NCBI GenBank assembly: GCA_965208675.1
Contig: OZ242351.1
Coordinates: 2,208,001 to 2,272,000 of the forward strand
Length of the DNA: 64,000 nucleotides
DNA from: Candidatus Poribacteria bacterium
GTDB taxonomy: Bacteria > Poribacteria > WGA-4E > PCPOR2b
Direction: 5' to 3'
The translations under genes and the position numbers were made by a program. The first letter of the stretch is position 1; every line of letters begins with the position of its first letter. Under the pieces are notes generated by a model. That model was not told the origin of the DNA, did no database searches, and saw nothing but the letters and a program-made list of their open reading frames with translations. Below are positions 3,668 through 35,181 of this stretch, piece by piece.

Positions 3668-4429
3668 ATGGACTTTCGCCTTGAAGCCGCTAAATACTAC
3701 GATTTACAACCCTTTCCGGATGACGTGCAATTTTATGAAAACTTGATATCTTCCAATACTGTTGATGTGCTTGAACTAGGTTGTGGAACTGGGCGTGTCC
3801 TGTCGCGTCTGGCAAACCGGTGTAGATATATTCATGGTATCGATCAGTCTGAAACCATGCTCGCAATTTGTCACCAATAGCTACAGGAGGCAGGGATTCC
3901 AAGGAAGAAGGCGTACGCTGAAATCGGCGACATTACAGACTTTTGTTTTGGACGTACCTTCGATTTCATCATTGCTCCGTTCCGTGCAATCCAAAACCTT
4001 GAGACTGATGATCAGGTGAATGGACTCTTTAACTGTATTGATAAACACCTAGCACCGCATGGGAACTGTATTCTAAATGCCTTTCACCCATGGCCCCTTG
4101 AGAAATTACGCCATATTTTGACCGCGAGAGAGGAAAAGATTAATTGGGAGGCGACACCTGGTGAGGTCCAGATTACCTGTCATTATAGATTTCGCCACAT
4201 TGATTTTGAGAAACAAGTGCTATATCCTGAATTAATATACCGGAGCTACAAAGACAATACGCTCGACAACGAAACCAACCTCAAAATTATCATGAGATTC
4301 TACTACCCTCGGCAGTTCGAGGATTTGATTGTTAGCCGCGGATTCAAGATTCTCAATCGCTGGGGCGGATATGCCGATGAACCTTACGGGAGTGGACCTG
4401 AACTGGTAATTGAGTTTGGTTTTAGTTAG
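3668..4429 (+). pseudogene. Class I SAM-dependent methyltransferase interrupted by one in-frame TAG (3878-3880)
   Basis: VLELGCGTGR motif I. The frame continues open past the TAG (LQEAG...GDITDFCFGRTFDFIIAPF) into ORF 4016..4429. Confidence 0.8.
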
Positions 4430-4608
4430 GGTATGATTCACCCGCATTTGCCGTCGTACCGTAGACCGATGTATGATATAATTTCCTGATCGGAAAACGG
4501 ACGGCGAAATGAATCCTTTTGGGAATTGCTTCGAGGGGTTTCTGGGGGACATTCCCGCTTTCCGCAAGTTTTATTGATGTTTACATTAACGCGTTCAGGA
4601 GGAGAAAT

Positions 4609-6843
4609 TTGAGATTTGGTGTGCGATTATGTGCGTTGGCTTTCGCGGCGTTGATGTGTATACCCATCGCTGCTGACGCCGATGAGGAAGATGACGAAAT
4701 TATTATGCTGGAAGAGATAATGGTTACTGCCCGCAAACGCGAGCAGCGGTCTTTTGAGGTGCCGCTCTCGGTTTCGACGCTGCGGGGCGAAAAAGCCGAC
4801 GCCTTGCGCTCATCCGGACTGGACATACGTTACCTGTCGAACCGCACACCCAGTTTGCAGATGGAATCCTCGTTTGGGCGTGTCTTTCCGCGCTTTTATA
4901 TCCGCGGCCTAGGAAATACGGACTTTGACCTTAACGCGTCGCAGCCGGTTTCTGTCCTCTATGACGGTGTTGTCCTCGAAAATGCACTGTTGAAAGGATT
5001 TCCCGCCTTTGATTTGGAGCGAATAGAGGTATTGCGGGGTCCGCAGGGCACGTTGTTCGGACGCAACACCCCCGCCGGCGCTGTCAAGTTTGAATCGGCA
5101 CGTCCCACGCAGGAATTTGAGGGATACGGCCGGTTTAGTTACGGCCGGTTCAGCAGTAGTAATTTTGAGGCTGCGGTGTCCGGCGCACTCATCCCATCTG
5201 TGCTTTCCACGCGGATTTCACTGCTTGACCAGCGGCGGGATGACTGGATAGAAAACGGGCATACGGATGAAGACAACGCTCTAGGCGGGCATCGTGACTT
5301 AGCAGGCCGGATACAGTTATTATGGACTCCCACACCGGAACTGAAAACTTGGATCAAGGTCCGCCTTCGCGATTTGGACGGCACAGCGCGACTGTTCCGC
5401 GCCAATACCTTGGTGCAGGGGCAAGGCGATCTCGTGGACGATTTTACCCGCGGCCGCATCGCGCACGACGGTCGTAATGAGCAAAATCTGAATACACAAG
5501 GTTTGGCAGCGGAAGTCCGCTACAACATGGGGAACTTCCAACTAGTTTCACTGACAGGGTTGGAGCGGTTGACCATGTTTGCGCGCGGAGACATTGACGG
5601 CGGGTACGGCGCCGTTTTCAGTCCGCCGAGCGGTCCCGGTGAAATTCCCTTTCCTTCCGAAACTGCGTCCGGTATTCCCCAGCTCCGCCAGTTTAGCCAA
5701 GAGGTCCGCCTAGTGAGTATAGCGCCGTACCGCCTCGCCTATCAGTTGGGGCTGTATTATTTCCGCGAGTTTGTGGAGATGGAAGATTTCAATTATAACA
5801 CCTTGACTGGCGGAACCGATGATGGGATGGTGCGACAAGAGCAGGAAGTGACTGCGCGGGCGGCATTTGCGGCGATGACGTACCAATGGAACAAAGACTT
5901 GGAATTGGGCGCCGGTGTACGATTATCTAATGATTTGAAGGACTATACCGCATGGCGAGACACTTCCCCAGCCGTTACGGAGGCAGGTCCCATAGGTCCT
6001 ATCCACCGGAATCCGCAAGACACAGTGTGGAGCGGAGATTTGAGTCTGCGCTACCGGGTCTCGCCTAGCGTGCAGACGTATTTGCGCACTGCACGAGGAT
6101 TTCGTGCGCCGAGCATTCAGGGACGCTTATTGTTTGGCAATGAGGTCACGGTAGCGGATACGGAGACGATTCTCTCCTTCGAAGGAGGCACGAAATTACG
6201 CCTGTGGGAACAGCGGATGCACCTGAATATGGCTGCATTCCATTACTTTATGCAAGATCAGCAACTGACTGCAGTTGGCGGAGAGGCTAATTTCAACCGG
6301 TTGGTGAATGCTGACAGCACTATCGGCCGGGGCGTTGAGGCGGAATTGACCCTTGCACCGATTACAGCGCTTGAAGTTACAGCGGGCCTCAGCTACAATC
6401 ATACGCGAATTGACGATCCGCACTTAGCGATACAGGGCTGCGGAGCTCCCTGTATTATGTTGGATCCGCCCGGTTCCGCCGACGGAACTTACTCCATTAA
6501 CGGCAACAGCCTGCCGCAGGCGCCGGGCTGGATTGCAGATGTGGCGCTGCGCTACGCCCTCGCACTTCCAGGAGGTGCGCACCTCATCGCGTCTACGGAC
6601 TGGGCATACCGCAGCCGCGTGCGGTTCTTTCTTTACGAATCTGTGGAATTTGGCGACGATTGGCTCTTGGACGGAGGTCTCCGCCTCGCTTGCCTATTGC
6701 CATTCGCCGATATGGAAGTGGCATTCGTGGGGCGCAACATCCTCAACGACACGTCACCAACCGGCGGGATTGATTTTAACAATCTGACCAGCTACGTCAA
6801 TGAACCCCGGTTTTGGGGACTGGAAGTGGTGCGGCGATTTTGA
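4609..6843 (+). CDS. TonB-dependent receptor
   Basis: TTG start after AGGAGGAG, signal peptide, TonB box LEEIMVTARKRE, plug motif RIEVLRGPQGTLFGRNTPAG, C-terminal Phe. Confidence 0.93.
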   Translation: MRFGVRLCALAFAALMCIPIAADADEEDDEIIMLEEIMVTARKREQRSFEVPLSVSTLRGEKADALRSSGLDIRYLSNRTPSLQMESSFGRVFPRFYIRGLGNTDFDLNASQPVSVLYDGVVLENALLKGFPAFDLERIEVLRGPQGTLFGRNTPAGAVKFESARPTQEFEGYGRFSYGRFSSSNFEAAVSGALIPSVLSTRISLLDQRRDDWIENGHTDEDNALGGHRDLAGRIQLLWTPTPELKTWIKVRLRDLDGTARLFRANTLVQGQGDLVDDFTRGRIAHDGRNEQNLNTQGLAAEVRYNMGNFQLVSLTGLERLTMFARGDIDGGYGAVFSPPSGPGEIPFPSETASGIPQLRQFSQEVRLVSIAPYRLAYQLGLYYFREFVEMEDFNYNTLTGGTDDGMVRQEQEVTARAAFAAMTYQWNKDLELGAGVRLSNDLKDYTAWRDTSPAVTEAGPIGPIHRNPQDTVWSGDLSLRYRVSPSVQTYLRTARGFRAPSIQGRLLFGNEVTVADTETILSFEGGTKLRLWEQRMHLNMAAFHYFMQDQQLTAVGGEANFNRLVNADSTIGRGVEAELTLAPITALEVTAGLSYNHTRIDDPHLAIQGCGAPCIMLDPPGSADGTYSINGNSLPQAPGWIADVALRYALALPGGAHLIASTDWAYRSRVRFFLYESVEFGDDWLLDGGLRLACLLPFADMEVAFVGRNILNDTSPTGGIDFNNLTSYVNEPRFWGLEVVRRF

Positions 6844-6967
6844 CCAAAGTACAGGCAATCCTTCAACACTGTGATTATTGGGCATGAAACTGAAAATATG
6901 ACTGGCAAATCTCGTTATAGTCATTTCGGTTCATGTTTATGCAAGGAGTGATCGACTGATTGATAAT

Positions 6968-6990
6968 CGAGGCTAGGAAGCCTCTCCCAC
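6968..6990. repeat. REP-like palindrome (gaggctaggaagcctctcccac)
   Basis: gaggct/agcctc inverted repeat ending in tctcccac; a related end occurs at about 57111-57209. Confidence 0.5.
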
Positions 6991-7064
6991 AAACCAATTG
7001 GTAAGCGCATAATTTTTAGTCGTAATGGCTATAGCACAGCTTTGACAAATTTCTTGGTGGACAA

Positions 7065-7356
7065 ATGAACAGAGATGAAGTTTTGAAGGTACTCCGGGCG
7101 CACAAAGCGATACTTGCGAAACGCTTTGGCGTAACAAACCTTGCCTTATTCGGCTCAGCCGCGCGTAACGAGATGTCCTCCGACAGCGACATAGACATCT
7201 TGGTTCGTTTCGACCGGCCGGGGACCTCAAAAGCCTACTTCGGCGTGCAATTTTACTTGGAGGACCTGCTGGGGCATCCCAGTCGATCTGGTCACTGACA
7301 AAGCGTTGCGGGTTGAGCTACGCCCTCATGTTGAGCAGGAGGCGATTGATGTGTAG
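7065..7356 (+). pseudogene. MNT (minimal nucleotidyltransferase) antitoxin, frameshifted, no HEPN partner
   Basis: LFGSAARNE...DSDIDILV motif. The C-terminus PVDLVTDKALRVELRPHVEQEAIDV* lies in the +1 frame after catccc at about 7280. Confidence 0.8.
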
Positions 7357-7480
7357 GTTCGGCCAGAAAACTCACGGCGGACGTTCTTTCTTTTAGCACA
7401 CAATCGTATTCACGATGGGAAATCTTTTCGTAGATTAGAAATCAGCATCAAATGAATTTTCCGGACACGAAATGTAAAAC

Positions 7481-7682
7481 ATGACCGACAAATTGCGTTA
7501 CCTGCTCACAGGTGAGCAACAAATAGATTTGTGGTGCACAGATGCAAAACAAATTCGTTTGTTGGACAAAAAACGGGAAATATGTCCGACAAATTGCGAT
7601 ACCTGCTCATGTATGAGCAGCAAATCACTTTATTGCTAACAGATGCACAATAAATTCGTTTGTCGAACAAAAATCGGGAAAA
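7481..7682 (+). repeat. Two 101-bp tandem direct repeats with conserved internal hairpins (candidate structured RNA or operator array)
   Basis: 7481-7581 vs 7582-7682 align without gaps at about 80% identity by manual count. Confidence 0.85.
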
Positions 7683-7873
7683 ATGTTAAAATATTCCGCT
7701 TTTAAACTAACCGCTGACCTCTCTGTCCGATCGATTAATCCTTCGCGCTTCGTTGGGTTGATTTCTTATCCGGGAGAATCTGAACGCATGTAAATATAAT
7801 TTTAAATGTATAAAACCACTAGCCACTGACCACTGGTCACTGGGAATTGTTTCTTAATAAGGAGAGTTTCTTA

Positions 7874-10360
7874 ATGAAAATAACCCTGAAGTTAGTAATC
7901 ATCTTACTAGCCGTATCTTCAATAACGGCGTCTGCTCAAGATTTCTCGCAATGGGATTTACCGGAAGGTGCTAAACAACGCCTCGGCAAGGGATGGATAC
8001 GAGATATTCAGTATTCTCCTACTCGTCCGCATCTCGCGGTTGCAGGTTCAATCGGGATTTGGATATATGACACAACGACCAACCGCGAGATTGATTTGCT
8101 GACCGGGCACACCCGGACGGTCAATGCGATAGCGTATGCTCCGAATGGCAACTTGATAGCGAGTGGGAGCAGCGACGACTCCATCCGGATCTGGGATGCG
8201 GTGACGGGCGAGGAAATCAGAACGATATGGGGACATGAAGATGCTATCTGGAGTTTGGCTTTTAGCGTCGACGGCGCCACACTTGCCAGCGGGAGCAACG
8301 ACAAGACAATTCGAATATGGGAAGTTGGCACGGGCGAGGAACTTGGAAAGCTGACCGGACATACCGATTGGGTGAATAGTGTGGCTTTCAGTCCGACACA
8401 CAATGTCCTCGCCAGCGGAAGCTGGGATCATACCGTCCGTTTGTGGGATTTGGACACAGGCGAGGAAATCCGAACCTTCCCGCCGCATTCATCTTTGGTG
8501 CGGTCTGTGGCTTTCAGCCCCGATGGGAACATGCTCGCCAGTTCGGATTTTGACGCCATAATCCGTTTGTGGGATGTTGAAGCTGGAACAGAAATCAGAA
8601 CATTCAGGGGCCACACTTCGGATGTTTTCGACATCACCTTCTCGTTGGATGGCAAGACGCTCGCGAGCGCTAGCGAGGACGACACCATCCGCCTGTGGGA
8701 TATCGAAACCGGCGCAGAACGAAAGAGAATTACCGGACATACGGCTGATGTTTACAGCATTGTATACAGTCACGACGGCGGGACGCTAGCCAGCGGCGGG
8801 TATGACGCTACCATTAAATTCTGGGATGCCGAGACCGGAGACGAGATTAGCAGCATCACCGGACACACAGATCTTGTTTTGAGCGTGGTTTTTACGCCTG
8901 ACGGCCGCACGCTTGTTGGAAGAAGTTGGGACAAAACCGTCCGCCTCTGGAACACTGATACGGGTCAGCTTGATAACGTGCTGGTAGGGCATACGGATGA
9001 TGTAGATGTTGTGGTTTTCAGCCCTGACGGCAGCAAAATTGCCAGCGGCAGCCAAGATGACACCGTACGTGTATGGGATGCGAACTCCGGAGAACTTCTG
9101 AGAACGCTGGTTGGACACTGGGCTTACCTGATTAGTTTAGCCTTCAGTCCCGACGGGAGTATACTGGCAAGCGGCAGCGAGGACGATGTTGTTCGATTAT
9201 GGCATACGGCCACTGGTCTGCGGTTGGATTTTCTTTACGGCCACGCGGCTGGCGTTGAGAGCATTGCTTTTCATCCCTCTGGCGAGATTCTCGCCAGCGG
9301 CAGCCGCGACGACTCAATTCGTATATGGGATGTCCCCTCCGGTAGAACACAGATAGCAATTAGGGAACATGAAGGCGATGTACTTAGCGTCGACTTCAAT
9401 TTTGACGGTTCATTGCTCGCCAGCGGCAGCCAAGACCGAACCATCAGGCTGTGGGATCCTACAACGGGCGATGCGATTCGGACGCTAAACGGGCACGAGA
9501 GCGGCGTCCGAACCCTTAAGTTTAGCCCTGATGGACGCACGATTGCCAGCGGGAGCCGAGATAACACCGTTCGGGTGTGGAACGCCGCTTCGGGCGAACT
9601 AATGAACACGTTTGCCGGACATACGGCTGGTGTTAGGAGCGTTGCTTTTAGCCCTGACGGCAGCATAATCGCCAGTGGAGGATGGGATGGCACGGTGTTG
9701 ATTTGGGACGCGCCGATACTGCCTCCGGAGGTTATCGAAGAGCCGCTGAACGCGGATTTAGACGGAGATGGGATGGTCGATATTGCCGACCTTGTGCTGG
9801 TCGCTTCTGCCTTTGGCGAATCAGGGGAGAATCTGACAGCCGATGTGAATGGAGACGGGGAAGTTGATATAGCCGACCTAGTAGCGGTCGCTGGCGCTTT
9901 CGGGACGGAGATTGCCGCATCACCGGCGCGTCCTGAAATCGCGGCGGTGCTGAACGAAGCGGACGTAAGGGAGTGGCTTATACAAGCTCAGCAGTTACGG
10001 CTATCTGATTCGAAATCGCGGAGAGGCATTCTCTTCTTGGAACAACTCCTCTTAGCGTTTCGCCCAACAGAAACGGCGTTGTTGCCGAACTATCCTAATC
10101 CGTTCAATCCGGAAACGTGGATTCCGTATCACCTTGCGGAAGACGCCGGTGTGCAGGTTACAATCTATGACGCCAACGGCAAGTTAGTCAGGCGTATCGA
10201 TCTGGGACATCAACCTGCGGGCTACTACACCGATCAACGCCTTGCAGTATATTGGGATGGCCAAAATCAGCGGGGCGAGGCTGTAGCAAGCGGTGTGTAT
10301 TTCTACACCTTGTCCACCGCGGGTTATGTGGAAACGAGGAAAATGACGATACAGAAATAG
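7874..10360 (+). CDS. Secreted WD40-repeat protein with dockerin-like domain and C-terminal FlgD-Ig/T9SS-like sorting domain
   Basis: Signal peptide, about 14 GH...WD repeats, paired DLDGDGMVDIADL/DVNGDGEVDIADL, LLPNYPNPFNPETWIPY; ATG at 7874 after AAGGAG. Confidence 0.9.
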   Translation: MKITLKLVIILLAVSSITASAQDFSQWDLPEGAKQRLGKGWIRDIQYSPTRPHLAVAGSIGIWIYDTTTNREIDLLTGHTRTVNAIAYAPNGNLIASGSSDDSIRIWDAVTGEEIRTIWGHEDAIWSLAFSVDGATLASGSNDKTIRIWEVGTGEELGKLTGHTDWVNSVAFSPTHNVLASGSWDHTVRLWDLDTGEEIRTFPPHSSLVRSVAFSPDGNMLASSDFDAIIRLWDVEAGTEIRTFRGHTSDVFDITFSLDGKTLASASEDDTIRLWDIETGAERKRITGHTADVYSIVYSHDGGTLASGGYDATIKFWDAETGDEISSITGHTDLVLSVVFTPDGRTLVGRSWDKTVRLWNTDTGQLDNVLVGHTDDVDVVVFSPDGSKIASGSQDDTVRVWDANSGELLRTLVGHWAYLISLAFSPDGSILASGSEDDVVRLWHTATGLRLDFLYGHAAGVESIAFHPSGEILASGSRDDSIRIWDVPSGRTQIAIREHEGDVLSVDFNFDGSLLASGSQDRTIRLWDPTTGDAIRTLNGHESGVRTLKFSPDGRTIASGSRDNTVRVWNAASGELMNTFAGHTAGVRSVAFSPDGSIIASGGWDGTVLIWDAPILPPEVIEEPLNADLDGDGMVDIADLVLVASAFGESGENLTADVNGDGEVDIADLVAVAGAFGTEIAASPARPEIAAVLNEADVREWLIQAQQLRLSDSKSRRGILFLEQLLLAFRPTETALLPNYPNPFNPETWIPYHLAEDAGVQVTIYDANGKLVRRIDLGHQPAGYYTDQRLAVYWDGQNQRGEAVASGVYFYTLSTAGYVETRKMTIQK

Positions 10361-10428
10361 GCGTAAGTATGCAAACCTTCACACGCAAATATACGCAACA
10401 CACGATACCATTTATGGAGAATTCTAGC

Positions 10429-13182
10429 ATGAAAATAGTTTCGACGATATTTTTCCTTTTCTTTGCAATTTCACTGCACTGCCTTGCACAAGACCCTTCA
10501 CAGTGGGATTTGCCTGAAGACGCCAGAGAGCGCGTCGGCAAAGGTTGGATTACGGAAATTCAGTATTCGCCCGACGGCTCCCGTCTGGCAGTAGCGAGTT
10601 CTATCGGCATTTGGATCTATGACACCGAGACATTTAAAGAGGTTTCGTTGCTTTCCGCGCACACGGAGGAGGTCACCGCACTGGCATATTCCATTGATGG
10701 CAGAATACTCGCCAGCGGGAGTTGGGATAGGACCATACGGTTGTGGGATCCTGAAACTGGTGAGGTGCTGCAAACCCTCGAAGGGCATTGGAGTGGAATC
10801 CGCAGCATAGACATTAACTCGGATGTGACCACGCTTGTCAGCGCGAGTTACGACCGGACCGTCCGGCTTTGGGATATTGAGACTGGCGACGAGATTCGAA
10901 TTCTCTGGGGGCATCGAGATCGCGTCAATACCGTTGCATTCAGTCCGGATGGCACTATGCTCGCCACCGGGAGTTGGGACCAAACTGCGCGTTTGTGGGA
11001 TGCCGCCACAGGTGAACAACTCCAAATCATCACCGCACACAGGTCGCTGGTTCAAGCCGTAGCGTTCAGTCCGGACGGGGAGACGCTTGCCACCGGAGAT
11101 TACAACGGTGAGATTCACCTCTGGGACATTGCCACAGAGACGCAGACTGCGGTCCTCACCGATCATACCTCGCTTATCTTCGATCTCGCCTTTTCTCCGC
11201 TAGACGGAGGCACGTTGGCAAGTGCAAGCGAAGACGACACCATCCGCCTTTGGGACACCGAGGCTGGCACGCTTAAGAAGACGATTACCGAGCATACCGC
11301 CGATGTCGTCAGAATTGTATTCAGTCCTGACGGCAGTACAATAGCCAGCGGGGCGTGGGATGCGACTGTCCGTTTTTGGAACGCGGAGACTGGTTCGCAC
11401 CTCAATACCATCACGGGCCACGCCGATGTGGTCTTGAACGTTAGTTTCAGACCGGACGGCCGTGCGCTTATTGGGCGAAGTTGGGACTCTACCATTCGGT
11501 TATGGAACACTGAAACGGGAAAACTTGATCATATCTTGTTTGGACATACCGACGATGTAGGGATCGTTGTTTTCAGTCCGGATGGGCACACACTGGCTAG
11601 CGGCAGCGAAGACCATACTGTCCGCTTATGGGATGTTGAAACCGGGGCGCACTTGAAAACACTTGTCGGTCACAGAGCCTATCTGATTAGCCTTGCCTTC
11701 AACGCCGATGGAACAATGCTTGCCAGCGGCAGCGAAGACGATGATATCCGCTTGTGGGATGTGGCAACCGGAGCGCGGCTGAGAACACTCGCCGGACATA
11801 CGACAGGGGTGGAGGGACTGGCTTTTAGTCCCGATGGCCACACGCTCGCGAGCGCAAGCCGAGACAATTCTGTCCGTTTATGGGATGTCGAAACCGGCAA
11901 GGAATTGCATAAGCTGGAAGGGCACCGCGGTGATGCGATTACCGTTGCTTTCAGTCCTGACGGAAACACGGTTGCGAGCGGCGGTTGGGACGCTGTCATC
12001 CGTTTGTGGGACGTTTCGACCGGGGAGTTGCGGGAATCCGTCGAGTCGTTTCACACCGGCATTAAGAGCATAACCTACAGTCCGGATGGTGAAAAGATTG
12101 CTACAGGAAGTTGGGATAATACGGTTCGCCTTTGGGACACTAAAACGCTTGCACGTATCAAGACATTACATGGACACAAATCATTCGTCTATAGCGTCGC
12201 ATTCAACGGGGACGGCAGCGTAATTGGCAGCGGCGGGGTTGACGGTACGCTATTGCTGTGGGAGATGCCGCCGTTACCGCCAATCTTTGTCAAGACGCTA
12301 GCACAGGGATTGAACATGATTTCTCTGCCGCTAATGCCTGAGGACCCGATTTCTGCGCGCGCGCTCGCTCAGATGGCGAATGCCACCGCAGTCATTCGAT
12401 TCGACAGAGAGACCCAGGGCTTCATAGCTTTCACGGATGATGAGCGCGGGTCGGGCTTCCCGATTGAAGGCGGAGAGGCTTATATCGTCAACACGCCGGA
12501 TGGCGGCTCTGTGGCATTCTCCGGTGAGGCGTGGGAGAACGAATCCGCGGCCGCACCTGGGGCCAATCAATTTAGAGAAGCTTGGGCATTTATCGTGGCT
12601 AGCGATTTGAAAAATGCCGAGGCTGATACCAATTATGCTGTAATTGCCGAGAATCTGCGTACCGGTGTTGTTGTAACTGACGAAATCGCCCCTAACAAAA
12701 CACGCGTTGCTGCCGTTTGGGCCGATCTCAATCGGAATAGTGTGGTGCAAGCAGGCGATAGGTTGGACATTACAGTGATTGATGACGGCGGGAACATCGT
12801 TTCGGGTCCGCATCATCACACAGTCAACATTGCCGACATCCGAAGGGCTTACAAGCGGGTGTCGCTGGTTGTTGGTGACATACGTCCAGAGCAGACACTC
12901 CTAGCACAGAATTTTCCCAATCCATTCAACCCTGAGACGTGGTTGCCTTACCAGCTCAGCCAATCCGGTTTTGCCGCCATACAGATATATGATGCGTCTG
13001 GGCGTCTCATACGGACGCTTGACCTTGGAATTAAACCGGCGGGATACTACATGACACGATCCAAAGCCGCATACTGGGATGGCCGCAACAGTTCCGGTGA
13101 ACGTGTTGCCTCTGGAAGTTACTTCTACACGCTCGAAACGGACGAATTTTCCGCGACGCGTAAGATGTTGATAGCCAAATAG
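10429..13182 (+). CDS. Secreted WD40-repeat protein (paralog) with accessory domain and FlgD-Ig C-terminus
   Basis: Start MKIVSTIF after GGAGA, about 14 WD repeats, LAQNFPNPFNPETWLPY. Confidence 0.9.
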   Translation: MKIVSTIFFLFFAISLHCLAQDPSQWDLPEDARERVGKGWITEIQYSPDGSRLAVASSIGIWIYDTETFKEVSLLSAHTEEVTALAYSIDGRILASGSWDRTIRLWDPETGEVLQTLEGHWSGIRSIDINSDVTTLVSASYDRTVRLWDIETGDEIRILWGHRDRVNTVAFSPDGTMLATGSWDQTARLWDAATGEQLQIITAHRSLVQAVAFSPDGETLATGDYNGEIHLWDIATETQTAVLTDHTSLIFDLAFSPLDGGTLASASEDDTIRLWDTEAGTLKKTITEHTADVVRIVFSPDGSTIASGAWDATVRFWNAETGSHLNTITGHADVVLNVSFRPDGRALIGRSWDSTIRLWNTETGKLDHILFGHTDDVGIVVFSPDGHTLASGSEDHTVRLWDVETGAHLKTLVGHRAYLISLAFNADGTMLASGSEDDDIRLWDVATGARLRTLAGHTTGVEGLAFSPDGHTLASASRDNSVRLWDVETGKELHKLEGHRGDAITVAFSPDGNTVASGGWDAVIRLWDVSTGELRESVESFHTGIKSITYSPDGEKIATGSWDNTVRLWDTKTLARIKTLHGHKSFVYSVAFNGDGSVIGSGGVDGTLLLWEMPPLPPIFVKTLAQGLNMISLPLMPEDPISARALAQMANATAVIRFDRETQGFIAFTDDERGSGFPIEGGEAYIVNTPDGGSVAFSGEAWENESAAAPGANQFREAWAFIVASDLKNAEADTNYAVIAENLRTGVVVTDEIAPNKTRVAAVWADLNRNSVVQAGDRLDITVIDDGGNIVSGPHHHTVNIADIRRAYKRVSLVVGDIRPEQTLLAQNFPNPFNPETWLPYQLSQSGFAAIQIYDASGRLIRTLDLGIKPAGYYMTRSKAAYWDGRNSSGERVASGSYFYTLETDEFSATRKMLIAK

Positions 13183-19700: not shown

Positions 19701-20174
19701 GCACAAATCATGGAGGACACGTTGAGCGATTACGGTTTTGATGTTACTTCAACGACGGAAAAATTAGCCAACTATCGTGCTGTTGAAAACACATACCTCT
19801 CGACTTTCCAGACACTCGGCGGGCTTGGGCTGCTTCTTGGGACATTGGGGTTAGCGGTTATTCTATTGCGGAACGTCATCGAACGACGGGGCGAACTGGC
19901 GACCTTGCGTGCGTTCGGCATTCGCCGATTAACCCTATCCATAATGCTTCTCGCGGAAAATGGATTTCTGCTTGCGGTCAGCATACTAATCGGCAGTATT
20001 TCCGCGATTGCGGCGGTATCTCCGCACGTTGTCAGTCCTGCCGGCGCACATATTCCTTGGCTTTCGCTCGCAAGCACGCTGATTGCGGTTTTTCTCGTTG
20101 GAATCACCGCTAGCGCCGTATCAGTTTTCTACGCCCTGCGATCGCCCCTGCTACCCGTACTTAAAGCGGAGTAG
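16713..20174 (+). CDS. FtsX/MacB-like ABC permease (duplicated, large periplasmic domains)
   Basis: TAVLTGALLVGDSVRGSL N-terminus, two FtsX-like TM bundles (ERRGELATLRAFG); overlaps the ATPase gene. Confidence 0.88.
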   Translation: MRRSLIHFWRIHLAVLMGTAVATAVLTGALLVGDSVRGSLRDLTLDRLGGIDYALVTEQFFRAALAADLLNQPVLTEQFEDTAPAILLGGTAVNADTRARASRVQIQGIDERFLNLWTKGEAANLGGFLEKQPGQSFPSVIINRSLQKELNVQVGSPLLVSFERQSDIHREFLLGRRGSSDVVQTLRLTITNIIPNQGLGRFSLDSNQTLPFNAYVHLPTLQKAIGQADSANTVFISQSSHSPDLTTDLLKSLHRGLHQVLKLEDLGLTLRRGNGYFALESKQFLLKPYVIEAANTVASERINQANRTGDSLKILPILTYLANSISTDARRIPYSTVTALNPEHAESLQLADGSPAPALAEDEIFINEWAAADLTAMVGDQISVTYYAMGPREELLTRHAQFRLKGILALDGLAADRGLTPNFPGVHDADDMSDWNAPFPINLSQIRSKDELYWDLFRATPKAFVSEEAGQRLWRSRFGSLTGVWIFPAYRGDVKRTRAEFQEELLEKIQPAQVGLVFQPVKAQGLKAAAGTTDFSMLFIGFSLFLIVSAVLLVGLLFRLGVEGRTGEIGLLLSSGYAVSIIRWRFIKEGCLLAGIGGVIGLGGGVIYAWLLMVGLRSWWLTAVGTPFLALHINPLSFVLGYLIGIFAVLFSICWTVRKFGKLPVRALLAGDTILEDKTAGRIAPILAFGGLGLAASLIIFAVVSGRTSSAPLFFGSGALLLAAGLALFSMRLRTPSNALSRSQKLRIVRMGVRDSARHKGRSMLCAALVGCACFVIVATGANRHSGTRHGLMLQKESGSGGFALTAESDVPLHHNLNTEEGRFELGFSDTDADIVNMAQVIQLRLLPGEDVSCLNLYKPRKPRILGVPAELIERGGFQFQGALATTPEASVNPWRALEVEAESGVIPAIGDYNSVLWILHLGLGEDLIMQNEFGESITLRLVGLLRSSIFQSELLISEANFKKHFPSQSGYSYFLIQPPSGNSAVSEGSGAPEAIAQIMEDTLSDYGFDVTSTTEKLANYRAVENTYLSTFQTLGGLGLLLGTLGLAVILLRNVIERRGELATLRAFGIRRLTLSIMLLAENGFLLAVSILIGSISAIAAVSPHVVSPAGAHIPWLSLASTLIAVFLVGITASAVSVFYALRSPLLPVLKAE

Positions 20175-20245
20175 ATGAGAAAAAACGAGCTAAACGCTGA
20201 GCGGCGGGAACGGTTTCGAGATTAATCGCAAAGTCCTAAAACCCT

Positions 20246-20511
20246 TGTAGGTTGGGTTGAGCGGAATTGACGAAGAGATGTAGGTGCATCGCGTGCGTTT
20301 TGTGGTTTGAAGGCATTAGGAATTTTGTTTGGGATAGCGTAACCCAACGCTTTTTGTTAATCGAGATGAGTCCAGTTTATCGGAGCCGGATCCAAGTTGG
20401 AAAAAGCGTTGGGTTACGCTTTATTAATTTTGGGAATTGCGTGGTTTCACATTCGTGGCGTTATTATTCCTTAGTTATGTATTTTATATATCCCGCTCAA
20501 CCCAACCTACA
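20246..20511. mobile_element. REPIN/MITE-like element with nested inverted repeats
   Basis: Outer IR tgtaggttgggttgagcgg (20246-20264) / ccgctcaacccaacctaca (20493-20511); inner perfect 20-bp IR at 20336-20355 / 20401-20420. Confidence 0.8.
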
Positions 20512-20648
20512 GAAGCTACGGAAGCTGCCTGTGCTTAAAGCGGAGTAGATGAGGAATAGCGAGCGCGAAGGCTGAGCGGCGAGAACCGCTTCGAGATCAA
20601 CCGCTAAATCCTCAAAGCGCCGATGATTTGATGGGTGCGAATTTTCGC

Positions 20649-26801: not shown

Positions 26802-28958
26802 ATGAACGAATTTCTTAAGCTATTGCTCCCATGGTGGGGGTCTATCAACTGGATTGCGGACGGTTTTATTTCCGTCATTGTGTCATACGCTTTCGTATCG
26901 GTTGTATGGTTTTGGGTGAAAACCTCCTTTCGATGCAGGTTAATTGATGATTTGACGAACGAAGCACGCAAACACGACAGACCTGTTCAACCATCAATTA
27001 AACAGGAATTAAAAAGCAAGTTTGATCGCAACAAGGAACTCACAGACGCCTGGCGGGAGTTTGAGGATTCACTCATAACACGAAATCATAATGAAAATCA
27101 GATGGTATATAAAACAGACGAAGCATCGCTGTTTTTCAGCGAGGAACGTCTGTTGGATCAACATTTGAACCTTCGATTCTGGAATAGTGTACCCGCTTTA
27201 CTGGTGGGATTGGGGATTCTTGGCACATTTGTTGGCTTAGTCTGGGGGTTGATACCGTTTTCCGGGATTAACTTTGAGGAGACTAGCCAAATTCAGGTAG
27301 CGATTAAAAAACTTCTATCGGGTGTATCTACGGCATTTGTAACCTCCGTTTGGGGTATGCTAACCTCGCTCGCGTTCAACGGATTGGAAAAATGGCGTAT
27401 CAGCCGCGTAAGTCAATCAATTGCGAATCTGCAACGCGAACTAGATCGCCTATTCACACTGACAACACAAGAAGAAATCTCGTTTCGACAAGAGGACGAA
27501 CTCGCTCAACAGACACAGGCGTTAAAGTCATTTTCAACAGATTTGGCGAACGATATTAAAAGTGCGATGGCGGAGGGTAGACAACAGATACTCACTGAAC
27601 TTCAAAACGCTCCTGAAGCATTTAGCAATGCGATGGTGGAGCAACTTTCACCGAGCTTAGGTAAATTGAACAGTGCAGTCGAAGAATTGCGTGAGCAAAA
27701 AGAAGAATCTTCTATGGATGCTATCGGACAACTCATAGAGCAATTTCATGAATCCCTGTCCACATCAACAGTGACACAAATGGAAGAACTTGCGAAGACG
27801 GTTGGCAGTGCGAGTCAAAGTCTGATGAATTTGCCCGCCCAAATGACACAGATGATGGGCGAAATGCTCAACGCATTACAGGGAACGATTAATATACAGC
27901 AAGAGAGCTTGACTGAATCAACTAGCAGTATGAATGTGCAGATGAAGCAAGTCGCTTCTGACATAAGCAATCTATTGAAATCGGTGGCAAACCGCGCGGA
28001 CGAGCAATTAGGACAACGGGCGGCAGATATAGAGACGGCTTCTAATCAGAGCATTGGAACACTCCAAAGTACGATTGTTCAACTGCAACATTCGATTGCT
28101 TCTATTGCCTCACAAACCGCCGCAGAGTCTGAAGCAATGACGAATCGGATGCGCGAACTAATGGAATTCGCGGCTAATCGAACAGATGAGCAATTGAGCC
28201 AACGAATGGCTGTTATCGAAACAGTTTCTAATCAAAGTGTTCAAACGCTCGAAGACATTATTTCCAAATTGCAGCAAGCAATTACCTCTACTACTTCACA
28301 AGCAGCAACAGACTACGCAGCAATGGCAAATCAGATGCATGAACGCTTTGAACAGACGGTTACTCGACTTGGTGAAAGCGTCGTAGATGTTGAACACAGT
28401 GTCCGCAGGCTTTTGCAACAACAAAGCCATCAGACAGAGGCAGTTAATGAACAACTCAGTGGCTTGCAGGAGATACTGGCAAGAGGGCGGGAAATGTTGC
28501 AAGGGATGAACGCGAGTGTAACCGGCATCCGCCAGTTAATTGAGGCGACGCAAGCGTTTTCAAGGCAACTGACCGGCGGAGCGGACAGGCTGGAGCAGGC
28601 TGGACAAAAACTGACACTAGCAAGTGACGCATTCAACCAAGAAAACGAAAAATATCTCGCGGCAAACCGTGAAACGACGGGACGAATCCAAGCTGCAGTT
28701 GGGCATCTCAACGACTCTGTGCAACGCTTCCAAACGGTCGACAATGGCTTGCGAGGCATTTTTGCAGAAATTGAGAAAGGGTTGAATACGTACGCCACAA
28801 CCTCCCGCGAATCTATCAATCAATATCTTAGCGATTTCTCCGATCAGTTGGCTCAAGCATCAAGAGCCCTCTCTGGCAGTGTTGAAGCACTGACAGACAT
28901 CGTTGAAGACGTGACCGACATGAATGAGCGAATGGCGCGTCGAGGTGGTAGCAGATAA
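26802..28958 (+). CDS. zorA: Zorya ZorA (MotA/ExbB-like TM domain plus long helical tail)
   Basis: VPALLVGLGILGTFVGL, LLSGVSTAFVTSVWG, and a tail of about 500 aa of coiled-coil character; precedes a MotB-like gene. Confidence 0.92.
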   Translation: MNEFLKLLLPWWGSINWIADGFISVIVSYAFVSVVWFWVKTSFRCRLIDDLTNEARKHDRPVQPSIKQELKSKFDRNKELTDAWREFEDSLITRNHNENQMVYKTDEASLFFSEERLLDQHLNLRFWNSVPALLVGLGILGTFVGLVWGLIPFSGINFEETSQIQVAIKKLLSGVSTAFVTSVWGMLTSLAFNGLEKWRISRVSQSIANLQRELDRLFTLTTQEEISFRQEDELAQQTQALKSFSTDLANDIKSAMAEGRQQILTELQNAPEAFSNAMVEQLSPSLGKLNSAVEELREQKEESSMDAIGQLIEQFHESLSTSTVTQMEELAKTVGSASQSLMNLPAQMTQMMGEMLNALQGTINIQQESLTESTSSMNVQMKQVASDISNLLKSVANRADEQLGQRAADIETASNQSIGTLQSTIVQLQHSIASIASQTAAESEAMTNRMRELMEFAANRTDEQLSQRMAVIETVSNQSVQTLEDIISKLQQAITSTTSQAATDYAAMANQMHERFEQTVTRLGESVVDVEHSVRRLLQQQSHQTEAVNEQLSGLQEILARGREMLQGMNASVTGIRQLIEATQAFSRQLTGGADRLEQAGQKLTLASDAFNQENEKYLAANRETTGRIQAAVGHLNDSVQRFQTVDNGLRGIFAEIEKGLNTYATTSRESINQYLSDFSDQLAQASRALSGSVEALTDIVEDVTDMNERMARRGGSR

Positions 28959-29734
28959 TGCGAAGAACACATCCCAAATCTAAAACACTCATAGATGAAA
29001 ACCCGTTCGGTCTTTCATTGGGAGATTTGATGGCAGGGCTGCTGCTTATCTTCGTGCTTCTGCTCTCTTTCGTTATGCTGCGGCTCGAAAACCTGATGGC
29101 AGAAAAACGACATCAATTAGAACAACTCGACGACCGGGAGCGGGTTAAGAGATTGCTTATCAGCCGTCTCCTTAAAGAACTTTCTGATTTTGATGTCGAA
29201 GTCGATCCGGACACAGGGGTAATTCGCATTATGGAAGGTATCTTATTTGATTTTGGCAAAGATGAACTGAAGCAGGAGGGTAAAGCATTTCTTCGTCAGT
29301 TTATTCCCAAATATGTTTCGGTCCTGCTTTCCGAGCCTAATGTTAGTGAGCATATCGCACAGGTGATTATCGAAGGACACACTGACAATGTCGGCAGTTG
29401 GGAACTCAATCTTGAATTGAGCCTACGCAGGGCGAACAGTGTGGCGGCGTATCTATTTGCGGACGAGTTCGGCACATTTCGTCATGCAGATGCGTTAAAA
29501 AAATTATTGTCCGCAAACGGACGGAGTTTTGCTCAACCAATTGTGACTGAAGGCACCGAGGCAGCGCGTGCCCAAAACCGAGGACATACCCTGAGGGACT
29601 GGGTGGACACGTATAATGAAACCGAAGAAGCACGTGCTCAAAACCGCCGTGTTGAATTTCAATTTCGATTGAGGGATTGGGATCTGGTCTTGCCCAAAGC
29701 TAAGAAATTATTGGAGGTAGAGACTGGGTTATAA
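28958..29734 (+). CDS. zorB: Zorya ZorB (MotB-like, OmpA peptidoglycan-binding domain)
   Basis: TM segment SLGDLMAGLLLIF with the conserved Asp; IEGHTD, NLELSLRRA, NRRVEF; TAATG coupling to zorA. Confidence 0.92.
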   Translation: MRRTHPKSKTLIDENPFGLSLGDLMAGLLLIFVLLLSFVMLRLENLMAEKRHQLEQLDDRERVKRLLISRLLKELSDFDVEVDPDTGVIRIMEGILFDFGKDELKQEGKAFLRQFIPKYVSVLLSEPNVSEHIAQVIIEGHTDNVGSWELNLELSLRRANSVAAYLFADEFGTFRHADALKKLLSANGRSFAQPIVTEGTEAARAQNRGHTLRDWVDTYNETEEARAQNRRVEFQFRLRDWDLVLPKAKKLLEVETGL

Positions 29735-29767
29735 TCTCATCGAAAAAGAAGACCGAAGGAGGTTAGC

Positions 29768-31165
29768 TTGAAATCCACCAGTGAAATAGTCGGTTTTGTT
29801 GGCTTTGACGCGAACGCATTTGCCCGCCGTGCGCCACAGTCAATTAAAATTAGACAACAGACGCATGACATTCTGAACGAAATTATGCGGAAGCACGGTG
29901 GTGCCGAGCATCAGCCGCCCAATAGAGAGGATCTCCGCCAAATTTATCGCCTCTTTTTCACCGCCAGCCGCACTGGGAGACTCCGTACAGAATTTGACAC
30001 ACTTAAACGTACCCGACAACTGGCATGGGCGTTGACTTATTCCGAAGGTAAATTATCTCGTATTGTGGACACTTCCCAACTTAACGACGCGCTACAACTG
30101 ATAGAAAACCGTTTTCGCGTCAGCACACTACCGGGCATTTTCAATGCGCTGCTAAAAGCGTGGGACTCACCGAACGCGGAGATGTTACGCGCCTTTGTTA
30201 AAAAGCATCTAACGGTATACAACGGATCCCGAAAATTCGTTCAGAAACTAAAAGCAAATATGGATTGGTACTGCGAAGAGAACAGCGCAACCCAGCTTGC
30301 GCTGAACTTGGTACGTTCAAAGGTGAAGCTGTCGGATGTTTGGTCAGTCCTCGAATTGCCCGATCATGCGCGCAGCTATCCTTACTTCGGTGCGGTAGCT
30401 GAGGCGTATGTTGCACTCAACCGCCCCGCTGGTCGAGAGGCTGTGGCAGATGTCATCGAATTTGTTGCGAAGCACAACAGCGATAAAACGAGCCGCACCG
30501 TTTTGTCCAAACTCATTGAGGGTTTTGGATATGATGTGTCTGAACACTTGCGGCAACCTGTACAATCCTACGTTCTGCGAGAATGGGGTGACCCACGAAT
30601 TGCAGGCGGGGATGTGCGTTGGCGCAATGTCGCCGATGAGGTAAAACAGATTTTTACGAGATGGATTACAAAGGAAGACCTCCGTTTCTTCTTCGATGTT
30701 GTCGCCAAAGCCTGCGACGATCGCAAATTTGCCTATCGAAAAGCCTTTTGGTTGGCGTATCTTGAACGTATTTCCTTTTGTCGTCCGGTATTGCGTCAAA
30801 ACGCTGAATATCTATTTAGAAATGATCCTCAAACCCTTGAATACTACCAAGAAAGACGGCCTGCCACATTGACAGGCGGTAGTAGCTGGCATCACGCTTT
30901 CATCATTAGGATGGGCAATTACACCTTTGTCGAGTTTAGCACAGACGGAGCGTGCTATATCTATGACAATTCTAAGCTACCATTTCGTTTGGACGACTCG
31001 GAGTATACGATGGATACTTGGCGCGAAAATACCTTACGTAATCAGTCGTTGGCAAAATTCCGTGTGATTCACTCGTATTCAGAAAACTACTCTTGGCAAA
31101 ACGAATTAGCATCTTGGATAAACAGAGAGCTTGGGTTTAAGCCGTTGCGAAGCTATCAGTTGTAA
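29768..31165 (+). CDS. zorC: Zorya ZorC (EH-signature domain protein)
   Basis: WGDPR, RKAFWLAY, FVEFSTDGACYIY and a downstream His; lies between zorB and an SNF2 gene. Confidence 0.85.
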   Translation: MKSTSEIVGFVGFDANAFARRAPQSIKIRQQTHDILNEIMRKHGGAEHQPPNREDLRQIYRLFFTASRTGRLRTEFDTLKRTRQLAWALTYSEGKLSRIVDTSQLNDALQLIENRFRVSTLPGIFNALLKAWDSPNAEMLRAFVKKHLTVYNGSRKFVQKLKANMDWYCEENSATQLALNLVRSKVKLSDVWSVLELPDHARSYPYFGAVAEAYVALNRPAGREAVADVIEFVAKHNSDKTSRTVLSKLIEGFGYDVSEHLRQPVQSYVLREWGDPRIAGGDVRWRNVADEVKQIFTRWITKEDLRFFFDVVAKACDDRKFAYRKAFWLAYLERISFCRPVLRQNAEYLFRNDPQTLEYYQERRPATLTGGSSWHHAFIIRMGNYTFVEFSTDGACYIYDNSKLPFRLDDSEYTMDTWRENTLRNQSLAKFRVIHSYSENYSWQNELASWINRELGFKPLRSYQL

Positions 31166-31172
31166 GGTAATT

Positions 31173-34100
31173 ATGATGTTAAACTCATTCCGAAAAGCCA
31201 AATCTCAATCGCCACAATTCAACTGGCAGGAGACACCGACGGGCATTGAATTCTCTCCTCCATTGGATCATTCTTCACCGTCCGAATACGCAGCCAACCT
31301 GCCGCCGGAGGCACACCACGCGCAGGCTCAATGGTTGTTGCTCAAAGAGCTGCTTGATAACGGTCAGGCGGAACCATCGGAAATGGGGATTCGTATCCCG
31401 TCCGAGGAAGTATGTTGTTTGGATTCCGTCGAACAGAGCCTGCTCGGGTTGCCAGATCTATATCCGTTTGATCTTGAAATTCGCTCGCTCGGAACGCTCA
31501 ACGAACCGGAGTTTCGGTACAATTATCAATTCCTGAAACCGGATCGAAAGCCTTTACATCCTAACCGGATTGGTTGCATATTGCGTTTAACGGAGGAATG
31601 GGCGTATCTTCTCACATATGAACAGTTCGTTCTTTTGGAAGGGCTTGATGCATTCAACGGACGAGTAGCAGCGGACAAAAGTTTTCAATCCAATCTCCTC
31701 GAATTTGCAAACATAAAAGGGCTTGCGACGCAGACGGGGACTGAACTAGAACGGTATCTAAATCAAGAAGAAGTGGTCGCACCAAAAACCGTACGCTTAC
31801 GTCTGCGCGAGTCAGGTGATGCTGTTGAGATTATCCCTGACGTAGCCGGGGTTGACAGCACAGAATTTGAAGACGTTTTTGACAAATTTTCGACCCCGGA
31901 GACCACGTACAATCTACCTCAACCTGACGGCGGCCGAACCCGCGTTCTCTTCCAAGAAGAACAGCGAGCGGCTTTGCAAACTGTTAAGCGGTACCGTCGT
32001 GTATCCCGCGAACAACTCGCGGAAATTGCCGAAGCACCACAGACATATTTCGATCCCGAAGTTGTCGAACTCGATTCGACAGATGAATCTCCTTCTTTCA
32101 GTGAGCGCGTCCGTGAAATCGGCATCTATCAACCGAGGACCTATCCGTTCGTTTCACCGTACAACAGCCAGTGGATCCCCGGTATTTTGGTTGATGATGG
32201 AACAGAATCACAAACGAAAGTTCAGATCAACACTGATACGGAGTTCGATGAACTTCGGCAAGTGATTAGTGAGGCAAAACAGGCAAATCAAACCCATCTG
32301 ACATGGGAAGGAAAAAAACTTCCAGTTTCTGATGTTGAGCAACATCTCCCATTTATCGAAAAACAACTCAAACATCGGACGAAGCCATCGCGTACATCGG
32401 ATGAAAAATCCGAGACTGTTATCTTAATAATTGAGGAGAACATAGACGACCCCGATTACGTTGCAGCATCTGATTCTTCAATCGAGGAACCGTTTCGGCA
32501 TCTGCTTGAACTCCCGCCCAACCTGAAACAGGAATTCAAACTCCTGCCGCATCAAGAAGAAGGCCTAGCATGGGCACAGCAACTGTGGGAGAAAGAATAT
32601 CCCGGTGGATTGCTCGCCGATGACATGGGCCTTGGCAAAACGTTACAGGTGCTCTGTTTTTTGGAATGGCATCACACGAAATTTCGCATGCAAGAATCAC
32701 AACACAAACCGTACCTGATTGTGGCACCAATCGCGCTTTTGGAAAATTGGGCAGCGGAATATCCCAAGTTTTTTGCCAATGGTGAACTAGATTTCGTTAC
32801 ATTGTACGGAAAAGATTTACAAACATTCAAGTCGGAGATGACCGACACAACCGTGTGCCCTATTCCAGAAATCGAAGGCAAAAAACATCCCCAACAATTA
32901 CACAGACGACGCGGTAATCTTGATGTCAAACGCCTCGGAGCCGCCGATCTGGTGTTAACAACGTATGAAACGGTCCGTGACTTCCAACTGGATTTAGGCT
33001 TGATTTCGTGGGCAACTGTTATCATTGATGAGGCACAACGAATCAAAACGCCCGGAACACTCGTGACAAACGCCTTGAAAGCACTCAAAACTGATTTTCG
33101 ACTTGCATTGACAGGCACACCCGTTGAAAATTCATTGATGGATTTATGGTGTATCACAGATTTCGTTGCACCGGGTTATCTTGATAGCGCGAAAAATTTT
33201 AACCGTAACTTTTGTCTTCCCCTTGAGCGCCCTGAAACAGACATTCGTGCGCTTGGCGAGCAGGTTCGCGAGCGCATTGGTGTTCACCTAAAACGACGAT
33301 TAAAATCTGACATTCTGAATGATCTCCCAGAAAAACATATACACGTCGAAGCATGCCAAGAAAAGATGCCGTCTGAGCAAGTGACACGCTATCAGGCTGC
33401 ACTTCAGTCGTCGCACGAGCCCGAATTAGCAGGTGCACAATCACGCAACGGAATCTTGCAAGTGCTACATCAGTTACGTGACATTTCCGACCATCCGTTG
33501 TTAGCTGATTCCCAATGGGGACAACTTCCCCTTCTCACGTTAATCGAACAATCGGCAAAACTTATCGTGACGGTAAAAATCCTTGAAAAAATTGCTAACG
33601 CAGACGAAAAGGTGATTCTATTTGCTGAACGGCGAAAGACCCAGCATCTTTTAGCGCATGTCGTTCGAGAAAAGTACCGTTTGGAGAACGTATCTATCGT
33701 CAACGGCAGTACCCCAGGCAGCACACAAAGAGCGGGTTCGATGAAGATGAGCCGTCAACAAGCCGTTGATCGTTTCCAGGCTAGCCTGGGTTTCAACACT
33801 ATTATCATGTCTCCGCTCGCAGCAGGTGTTGGTCTCAACATCACCGAAGCGAACCATGTCATTCACTATAGCCGCTGGTGGAATCCCGCTAAAGAAGATC
33901 AAGCAAGTGACCGGGTCTACCGTATTGGACAAACGCGGCCCGTGCACATCTACCTGCCGATGGCAACCCATCCCGAGTTTCAGACGTTCGACGTTATCCT
34001 GCACGAACTTCTGGAACGCAAACGCCAGCTTTCACAGGGCACGCTCTTCCCTACGGAACGGGCCGAAGTAACTCCTCTAGACTTGTTAACCCGTCTGCAG

Positions 34101-34917: not shown

Positions 34918-35181
34918 ATGAATTCAAAAACGACAAAACGGTTTCGTCAGATGCTTGCAAAATTACCAAGCGACATTCGACACCAGGCGAGGAAAGCCTA
35001 CTCGCTTTTCAGGGAGAATCCAAACCATCCAAGCCTTCGGTTCAAAAAGATACATACCACTGAACCGATTTATTCCGCTCGTATCAATATGAACTATCGG
35101 GTGGTTGGAGTCGTTGATGAGGGAGTGATTGTTTGGTTCTGGATTGGAACACACGCTGAATATGATAAACTGATTCAGTAG
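34918..35181 (+). CDS. RelE/ParE-like toxin
   Basis: NPNHPSLRFKKI, YSARI, YRVVG, WFWIGTHAEYDKL. Confidence 0.8.
   Translation: MNSKTTKRFRQMLAKLPSDIRHQARKAYSLFRENPNHPSLRFKKIHTTEPIYSARINMNYRVVGVVDEGVIVWFWIGTHAEYDKLIQ

Follow-up and report, generated by a model that had tools for sequence, protein, structure and literature searches.

The intergenic array described here resembles two known kinds of palindromic repeat. In Neisseria, NIME arrays, which span a few hundred to a few thousand bp, likewise consist of short dyads and linkers between genes and next to surface-protein genes, and the genes that they flank are gained or lost between strains (PMC3898611, in the sections available to us). Indeed, the present locus of Candidatus Poribacteria likewise has a mosaic array between genes, with surface-protein genes next to it and genes gained or lost between its pieces. 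The Poribacteria dyads are built as 11-4-11, however, and are unrelated in sequence to the 20-bp, 6-8-6 dyad of dRS3; the dRS3 pattern ATTCCC(N8)GGGAAT, as given in the same sections, does not describe the 26-bp consensus TGnnCAACAAATnnGTTTGTTGnnCA obtained from 19 aligned copies, which is a different 26-mer. Also, RS elements of 30–160 bp are the linkers of NIMEs according to that source, whereas our linkers are 4 or 14 nt; NIMEs are present in hundreds of copies per genome as against apparently few, and no phage integrase is linked to the array. BIME-2 arrays of REP elements are similar to our array in their regular, alternating palindromic units, tandem modules of strain-variable length, and compensated palindromes (PMC2817692, as far as its accessible portion goes), and regularly spaced palindromic tandem modules that vary between strains were found here as well. 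The array is nonetheless AT-rich rather than GC-rich, no RAYT was seen in the window (i.e., the whole stretch of 64,000 nt analysed in this study), and there is no sign of more than 100 copies. In terms of GTAG-type ends, furthermore, the window array contains no GTAG/CTAC, and the array of a relative contains two in 887 bp against 25 dyads; a true GTAG-ended REP-like doublet adjoins the latter array but is a different element. By analogy, we regard the array as working like dRS3/NIME or BIME-2 while belonging to neither family. The array is intergenic and mosaic and appears restricted to a lineage, and its kind, namely the mosaic palindromic intergenic array, is already known. No prior description of this particular family was found in the literature searched, which covers main texts and under-represents subscription journals, and the array seems to be a repeat family not described before, as opposed to a riboswitch.

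The F-plasmid sopC and the family of repeats in EBV oriP are homogeneous, lie on episomes beside the gene of the protein, and segregate DNA. The present array is similar in having tandem dyads at a fixed period that would load a dimeric protein but differs in being mosaic, in lying on a chromosome and in having no partner gene within the window. Tn3 res sites are also dyads of half-sites starting with TGTC, and one of our arm classes agrees with the site III motif at 7 of 9 bases; in the part of 10.1101/2021.12.07.471667 at hand, however, res is composed of three subsites, which differ in their spacers, with a resolvase gene beside them, whereas we found 7–25 equivalent dyads, other arm classes without a match, and no resolvase in the window. 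In TIGR arrays, short motifs alternate as well, the boundaries being CA...TG and the flanks palindromic (10.64898/2026.09.09.750476, in excerpt). Nonetheless, pairs of box C and box D separated by 9 nt numbered zero on either strand of either array, and those existing at a spacer of 10–11 lie on conserved repeat sequence; the linkers are conserved rather than unique, there are no paired 9-nt spacer intervals, and no Nop-domain Tas gene was seen among the window ORFs or the cargo genes of the relative. PARCEL elements are tandem repeats with dyad symmetry but are in-frame coding repeats of 25 codons (PMC2996958, partial text), in contrast to our frame-cycling 70–72-bp units between genes. CRISPR arrays have near-identical repeats with unique spacers between them and are accompanied by cas genes; such an identity is contradicted by linkers of 4 or 14 nt that are conserved and by the lack of any cas family in the window.

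The features of the locus in the window are as follows.

4519–6843, plus strand: TonB-dependent receptor forming the left flank (Pfam).
6865–6920, plus strand: degenerate unit of the array, comprising an arm, a 14-nt linker, a second arm and a core (E 2.7e-6 by nhmmer, with 255 kb searched).
7065–7356, plus strand: MNT antitoxin-type nucleotidyltransferase, frameshifted (Pfam NTP_transf_2, E 4e-12; two frames translated).
7442–7669, no strand assigned: array of seven 26/27-bp dyads (PWM and parse; nhmmer E 2e-14 to 0.01 for pieces).
7442–7467, no strand assigned: first dyad, a probable hybrid and candidate deletion junction (comparison of arms and core with the relative).
7482–7508, no strand assigned: 27-bp dyad with a 5-nt core and a degenerate right arm, which is the left half of the first hairpin proposed earlier.
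7513–7538, no strand assigned: 26-bp dyad (29/30 identical to position 5068 of the relative).
7543–7568, no strand assigned: 26-bp dyad, followed by a 14-nt linker at 7569–7582 (dyad parse).
7558–7593, no strand assigned: 36-bp module of arm, 14-nt linker and arm; no other sub-unit of the family is as complementary or as consistently co-inherited.
7583–7609, no strand assigned: 27-bp dyad, second copy of the type with a 5-nt core (dyad parse).
7614–7669, no strand assigned: final pair of dyads, orthologous to the pair that ends the relative's array (70/73 identical over 7614–7686).
7670–7710, plus strand: final 14-nt linker, then a degenerate dyad that closes the array and has a T-rich end, common to the window and the relative.
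7795–7800, plus strand: TATAAT hexamer, located after the array and before the WD40 gene, without a matching -35 and not called by the promoter scan.
7815–7842, plus strand: heptamer-type tandem repeat, separate from the array and 60 nt before the WD40 start (TRF).
7874–10360, plus strand: WD40 protein forming the right flank, with a C-terminus like dockerin, FlgD-Ig and a Por secretion tail (Pfam).
10252–13182, plus strand: ORF limits of a second WD40 paralogue; its true start is probably later, and no array stands in front of it.

The seven dyads start at 7442, 7482, 7513, 7543, 7583, 7614 and 7644, giving steps of 40, 31, 30, 40, 31 and 30 bp, and a period of 101 in the window is the sum of 31, 30 and 40. 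The degenerate unit at 6865–6920 is located between the stop codon of the TonB receptor and the MNT gene, upstream of the latter, in both genomes. When the 64 kb was scanned by nhmmer with a profile of 11 units from the relative, nothing was significant besides the array and this unit; dyad-like sites at 7039 (8.4 bits) and 44332 (15.9 bits; nhmmer E 2.3) were rejected as being within background. Promoter and terminator scans gave results at or below shuffle levels, with no terminator or full promoter match in 6800–7950. Also, a family scan of 60 non-overlapping ORFs (at least 70 aa), kept out of 174, revealed no recombinase, transposase, RAYT, Cas, Nop, ParB or transcription-factor family in the window.

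A sequence-only reading of this locus had described a tandem of two 101-bp copies with three hairpins. Indeed, the copies at 7481–7581 and 7582–7682 align without gaps and differ at 21 of 101 positions as had been noted, which is borne out by TRF (period 101, 2.1 copies, 79%) and self-BLAST of the window (E 2e-21); the distance from the repeat to the ATG of the WD40 gene at 7874, given earlier as about 190 nt, was measured to be 188 nt. Neither 101 bp as the unit nor 7481–7686 as the extent can be maintained, however, since the repeat runs farther upstream and is built of 30/31/40-bp subunits; 7420–7480 is identical at 34 of 61 positions to the second part of the 101-nt unit, a value reached by none of 20000 shuffles. 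The TGCTCA-N4-TGAGCA dyad is seen in both copies, and the compensatory pair in the middle stem is real (G-C to A-T at unit positions 51/70). The first and second of the proposed hairpins each correspond to two facing arms of neighbouring dyads, a right arm and then a left arm, with the 4-nt linker between them, and the third to one arm and the A-rich start of the long linker. This third hairpin, TTTGT-N3-ACAAA, fared less well and is not conserved: in the MFE structure of either copy that arm pairs with the 5' end of the unit, and the perfect motif was found at only 1 of 14 internal homologous positions, a count leaving out two terminal dyads that both carry it. The supposed ccg/cgg closure is absent from the single-copy MFEs and from the two-copy consensus fold. 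The differences, described as lying in loops and linkers, cluster modestly (p 0.013, 0.047, 0.12 and 0.66 in windows of 30, 14, 4 and 10 nt, respectively), and five changes hit the left arm of the middle stem. Two copies had been judged as weak evidence of covariation; a random-mutation null with 21 substitutions and a joint fold gave p values of 0.02, 0.09, 0.24 and 0.34 depending on the strand and the assumed ancestor, which do not establish selection on structure. Each copy alone folds into a three-way junction, but the z score against shuffles was -3.9 (plus) and -1.5 (minus) for copy 1, and -2.0 (plus) and -4.1 (minus) for copy 2; the better strand therefore differs between the copies. 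A coding reading was also discarded: each unit opens with ATG, yet the frames cycle and stops occur, and third positions account for 7 of the 20 differences within codons 1–33. The fallback proposal of a duplicated cassette of dyad sites was close to reality, while the dyads are other ones (26 bp, of one family) and its operator function was not borne out. The 101-nt copy is thus very probably not the functional unit, and the pattern of two 101-bp copies is, to judge from the sequence, the shrunken remains of a longer, length-variable palindrome array.

Such a longer array was found at the orthologous locus in a relative (L009; Ca. Poribacteria OZ242326.1), which is the sole locus with the array among 20 matched by one exact-pattern scan of GTDB with an 18-base pattern; the other 19 have the pattern alone in common, mostly inside coding-looking sequence. 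Positions 4298–7549 and 7519–12143 of the window are aligned to L009 at 92% and 91%, respectively, and between these blocks L009 has about 2 kb of extra sequence. Its features are as follows.

L009 3147–3280: four-dyad upstream piece, the rest of it lying within the extra ~2 kb.
L009 3332–3431: REP-like inverted doublet with GTAG ends, its 28-nt arms separated by 44 nt, located shortly before the Fic gene.
L009 3510–4622: 370-aa Fic gene, SoFic-like (PADLOC SoFic E 2.5e-103; PDB E 2e-38).
L009 4676–5545: main array of 25 dyads, about 890 bp (dyad parse).

The order in L009 is therefore receptor, array piece, MNT, array piece, REP doublet, SoFic, main array and WD40; namely, array pieces bracket the MNT gene in both genomes and the SoFic gene in L009. 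The MNT gene is damaged in different ways, by a frameshift in the window and by an early in-frame stop in L009 (2771–3061), and no HEPN partner was seen in either. The SoFic segment of 2 kb is absent from the window, as is any copy of the GTAG-ended doublet, and the window array lacks one 41-bp dyad in the alignment. While dyads 2–7 of the window have their best matches in downstream dyads of L009, the first dyad (7442–7467) looks like a hybrid of the two L009 pieces: its left arm and core are those of the dyad that opens the upstream piece, and its right arm is of the class seen in the downstream array. The simplest reading of the window would be that a deletion joined the two pieces, although the junction is ambiguous, with the region of the first dyad identical at 29/40 positions to L009 4956 and 5166 and at 28/40 to L009 3147. 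The change may have been a loss of SoFic in the window or a gain in L009, its direction resting on two genomes. A search for WD40 homologues was useless for synteny, the best matches listed being 31–53% identical.

The building block of the array is an 11-bp arm (consensus TG-nn-C-R-ACAAA), which alternates in orientation to form 26/27-bp dyads with a core of 4–5 bp, the 27-bp form having the 5-nt core. In the main array of L009, linkers of 4 and 14 nt alternate strictly at all of 24 junctions while the sequence drifts; steps of 30/31 and 40/41 bp make up a basic repeat of 70–72 bp with higher-order lags of 142 and 212, and the mosaic sums of steps in the family include 70, 72, 101, 142 and 212. 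The phasing of dyad centres is best at 10.0–10.1 bp. Arm classes switch at 13 of 25 cores and 6 of 12 short linkers but at none of 12 long linkers, which implies that the arm-linker-arm module is inherited whole. The R/Y variation over cores is even between the strands (at position 6, eight G-T versus eight A-C), matching the expectation for half-sites drifting independently.

The arms truly covary, most strongly over the 14-nt linker, and some role of a hairpin may persist. Across this linker, 88% of cells are paired, changes on both sides were found in 5 of 11 pairs (15 rows), and the covariation score, with 15 both-side changes, was reached by none of 500 shuffles; across the core, 81% of cells are paired and both-side changes occur in 4 of 11, with counts not above shuffles (19 rows). 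These rows share descent, so that the counts represent non-independent events and are inflated. Wobble pairs number 28 on the plus and 52 on the minus strand in all, and at short linkers 15 on the minus versus 3 on the plus (p 0.008, one of three tests); also, the fold of the L009 array has -302 kcal/mol on the minus and -271 kcal/mol on the plus strand. This bias toward the minus strand could come from the A-rich composition of the plus strand. No predicted RNA fold shared between units was found on either strand, and the arms choose different partners in ensemble folds. Template switching is described to perfect inverted repeats in bacteria (PMC5941160, in the available part), and covariation of the arms is hence possible without selection on RNA.

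Rfam gave no match in the window at gathering score, in agreement with the earlier statement that no known family was recognised; by E-value, the best was E 7.6 in 7350–7880 and, in L009 3000–5800, E 0.07 from unrelated miRNA models far below cut-off. BLASTN found no match to the window region in plasmids and phages, nor to the longer L009 array in plasmids, phages and E. coli genomes. Searches were also made with a 105-aa ORF of L009 and with an alignment of its matches. The 11 phmmer matches comprised itself, five array translations and five that were set aside, of which P0123, P0124, P0128 and P0130 gave nothing against the arrays in tblastn at E 1e-3, and P0132 had a weak match (E 5e-6) but repeats off the array motif. 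In all, ten unnamed ORFs, located on contigs of eight different lengths, were matched to the array by tblastn; their periods are 210, 180, 186 and 72 nt, each of which is a sum of array steps. These ORFs are taken as spurious translations of related arrays, i.e., mistakes of gene callers. The copy number and mosaic order vary, from seven dyads in the window to 4 + 25 in the relative and periods of 70, 72 and 180 bp elsewhere. The family recurs, its arrangement varying, but looks rare. As a separate observation, translations of heptamer-type repeats similar to that at 7815–7842 come after the array in P0127, P0131 and P0136.

We favour, with a probability of about 0.47, the reading that this is a mosaic DNA array in which sites for a dimeric protein are roughly in phase, and that small genes of defence type are gained and lost between its pieces. 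From the structure, length polymorphism and cargo difference observed in the two genomes, we infer a protein, its binding and a recombination route. The dyads would be tandem sites that face roughly the same side of the DNA helix and are bound by a homodimeric protein whose gene lies elsewhere; phased sites of a dimer would explain why arm positions are invariant and spacer lengths fixed. The array might grow by tandem duplication and be shuffled via crossovers at cores and short linkers, its arms being homogenised locally through template switching, and recombination between directly repeated pieces would delete or exchange the small defence-type genes lying between them. One such deletion may have left the pattern of two 101-bp copies in the window. 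This reading is supported by the longer array and extra cargo at the orthologous locus, and also by the fixed linkers at 24/24 junctions, the phasing of dyad centres at 10.0–10.1 bp, the pattern of class switches, the even R/Y variation over cores, the lack of a shared fold, the unit at 6865–6920 and the ten ORFs. Counting against it is that no binding protein, recombinase or transposase is present among window ORFs of at least 70 aa. Simple protein binding, furthermore, would not predict the both-side changes of arms, for which either hairpin selection or template switching is needed, and the minus-strand excess of wobble pairs and the lower minus-strand energy favour some single-strand role. 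The period of relaxed B-DNA is 10.5 bp, from which about 10.0–10.3 bp in the array drifts, and this speaks against phased sites. With one locus in 64 kb and one in the GTDB scan, the array is not visibly abundant, unlike NIMEs and BIMEs.

Alternatively, the array might be a neutral, self-propagating palindromic minisatellite, in which a relic or chance palindrome was amplified by slippage, snap-back synthesis and unequal crossover, the loss of genes being a by-product. Runs of same-class arms and the higher-order repeats of 70, 142 and 212 bp fit local duplication and template switching, and the narrow distribution, the absence of a partner gene in the window and the damage to the adjoining MNT gene in both genomes are in its favour. 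We nonetheless consider a minisatellite unlikely, given that the 4/14-nt linkers and arm positions are invariant among units that differ at many other positions, and that the degenerate T-rich 3' end recurs in the upstream piece of L009 and in 4 of the 10 unnamed ORFs.

Less probable still is an undescribed recombination system in Poribacteria, a platform on which array pieces serve as sites for a trans-acting site-specific recombinase that inserts and excises small defence genes, as do attC or dif sites in integrons. The 11-4-11 dyads would then be interchangeable crossover sites with exchange at the core, perhaps as bottom-strand hairpins, and the cargo would be anti-phage or toxin-antitoxin genes (MNT and SoFic) without the sequence features of integrons. 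Three pieces in the same orientation do alternate with the MNT and SoFic genes in L009; class switches are concentrated at cores, where the first dyad of the window looks hybrid, and the minus-strand wobble bias and the 7/9 agreement with res site III would be consistent with such sites. Cargo does not separate most dyads, however, and homologous recombination suffices for the single deletion. The core boxes of attC are RYYYAAC and GTTRRRY, and these are too few, being 0 and 1 in the window array and 3 and 2 in the L009 array, respectively; neither a recombinase nor, in particular, an integron integrase was seen among the window ORFs. Also, the closest plasmid homologue of Fic (52%; the one examined of 118 matches) has no array.

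Slightly less probable again is a multi-hairpin RNA, with an 11-bp stem and a purine-rich loop of 14 nt, acting as a 3'-UTR stabiliser for the gene upstream, as a protein sponge or as a repeat antitoxin RNA. The paired cells and both-side changes over the 14-nt linker would be expected of such an RNA; every piece is located 20–90 nt past a stop codon on the same strand, and a T-rich end follows the last stem-loop. The plus strand folds worse, however, the partners of arms vary in ensemble folds and are often not across the 14-nt linker, the covariation counts are inflated by shared descent, and there is no Rfam match. In type III toxin-antitoxin systems, a direct-repeat RNA array is positioned upstream of the gene of its cognate endoribonuclease, whereas the genes downstream of our pieces are MNT, Fic and WD40.

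An operator or enhancer array for a neighbour gene, bound by a SoFic-like protein or a regulator of the WD40 operon, is very improbable. Dimeric SoFic binds its own promoter DNA, preferring the first 100 bp before its start (10.64898/2026.07.09.737422, in the portion available), and the Fic of L009 is SoFic-like. The L009 piece, however, ends about 230 bp before the Fic start with the main array behind the gene, the window keeps its array without Fic, and the copy number of the array differs fourfold ahead of the same WD40 gene; a Fic-linked operator was also set aside on the closest plasmid homologue mentioned above. Least probable is the lead idea of the sequence-only reading, a tandem riboswitch or cis-acting 101-nt RNA controlling the WD40 genes, which is largely refuted: the three-way junction of each lone copy and the distance to the ATG favour it, but the 101-nt unit is no conserved module, being absent from L009 where a 41-bp dyad interrupts, pairing over the 14-nt linker replaces one closing stem in the two-copy context, partners of arms vary, there is neither a terminator nor an Rfam match, and TATAAT lies downstream of the array.

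A 101-nt riboswitch lead is hence removed and replaced by a repeat family of unusual regularity, which, in the two genomes compared, marks a site of turnover of defence-type genes. If a dedicated protein binds or recombines the array, this uncultured phylum would offer a cassette system or a DNA-binding specificity that is new; otherwise, the array would still be a VNTR for strain typing and would illustrate clearly how the covariation of RNA can be mimicked by arrays of palindromes.

Elsewhere in the window, a complete Zorya type I-like operon was noticed at 26802–34565, where ZorA1, ZorB1, ZorC1 and ZorD1 are the best PADLOC matches, followed by a ParE-like ORF (34918–35178) and a PDC-S11/DUF4268 gene (35254–36207). 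Nested inverted repeats at 20150–20616 (22-nt arms at 20246/20490 and perfect 20-nt arms at 20336/20401) sit between two 92-bp direct copies, 81% identical, that include the end of an ABC permease gene; the arrangement resembles the insertion of a REP doublet accompanied by duplication of a flank. At 3668–4429, the N-terminus of a methyltransferase in a 70-aa ORF precedes two short ORFs in other frames, which is probably a broken gene. An intergenic sequence of 140 bp occurs twice (36257–36396 and 37934–38071; 77% identity), both copies being upstream of genes for secreted or periplasmic proteins and having no Rfam match at gathering score. Also, an 890-aa secreted protein with a FlgD-Ig C-terminus carries an internal tandem duplication of about 795 bp (79%) at 54467–56066.
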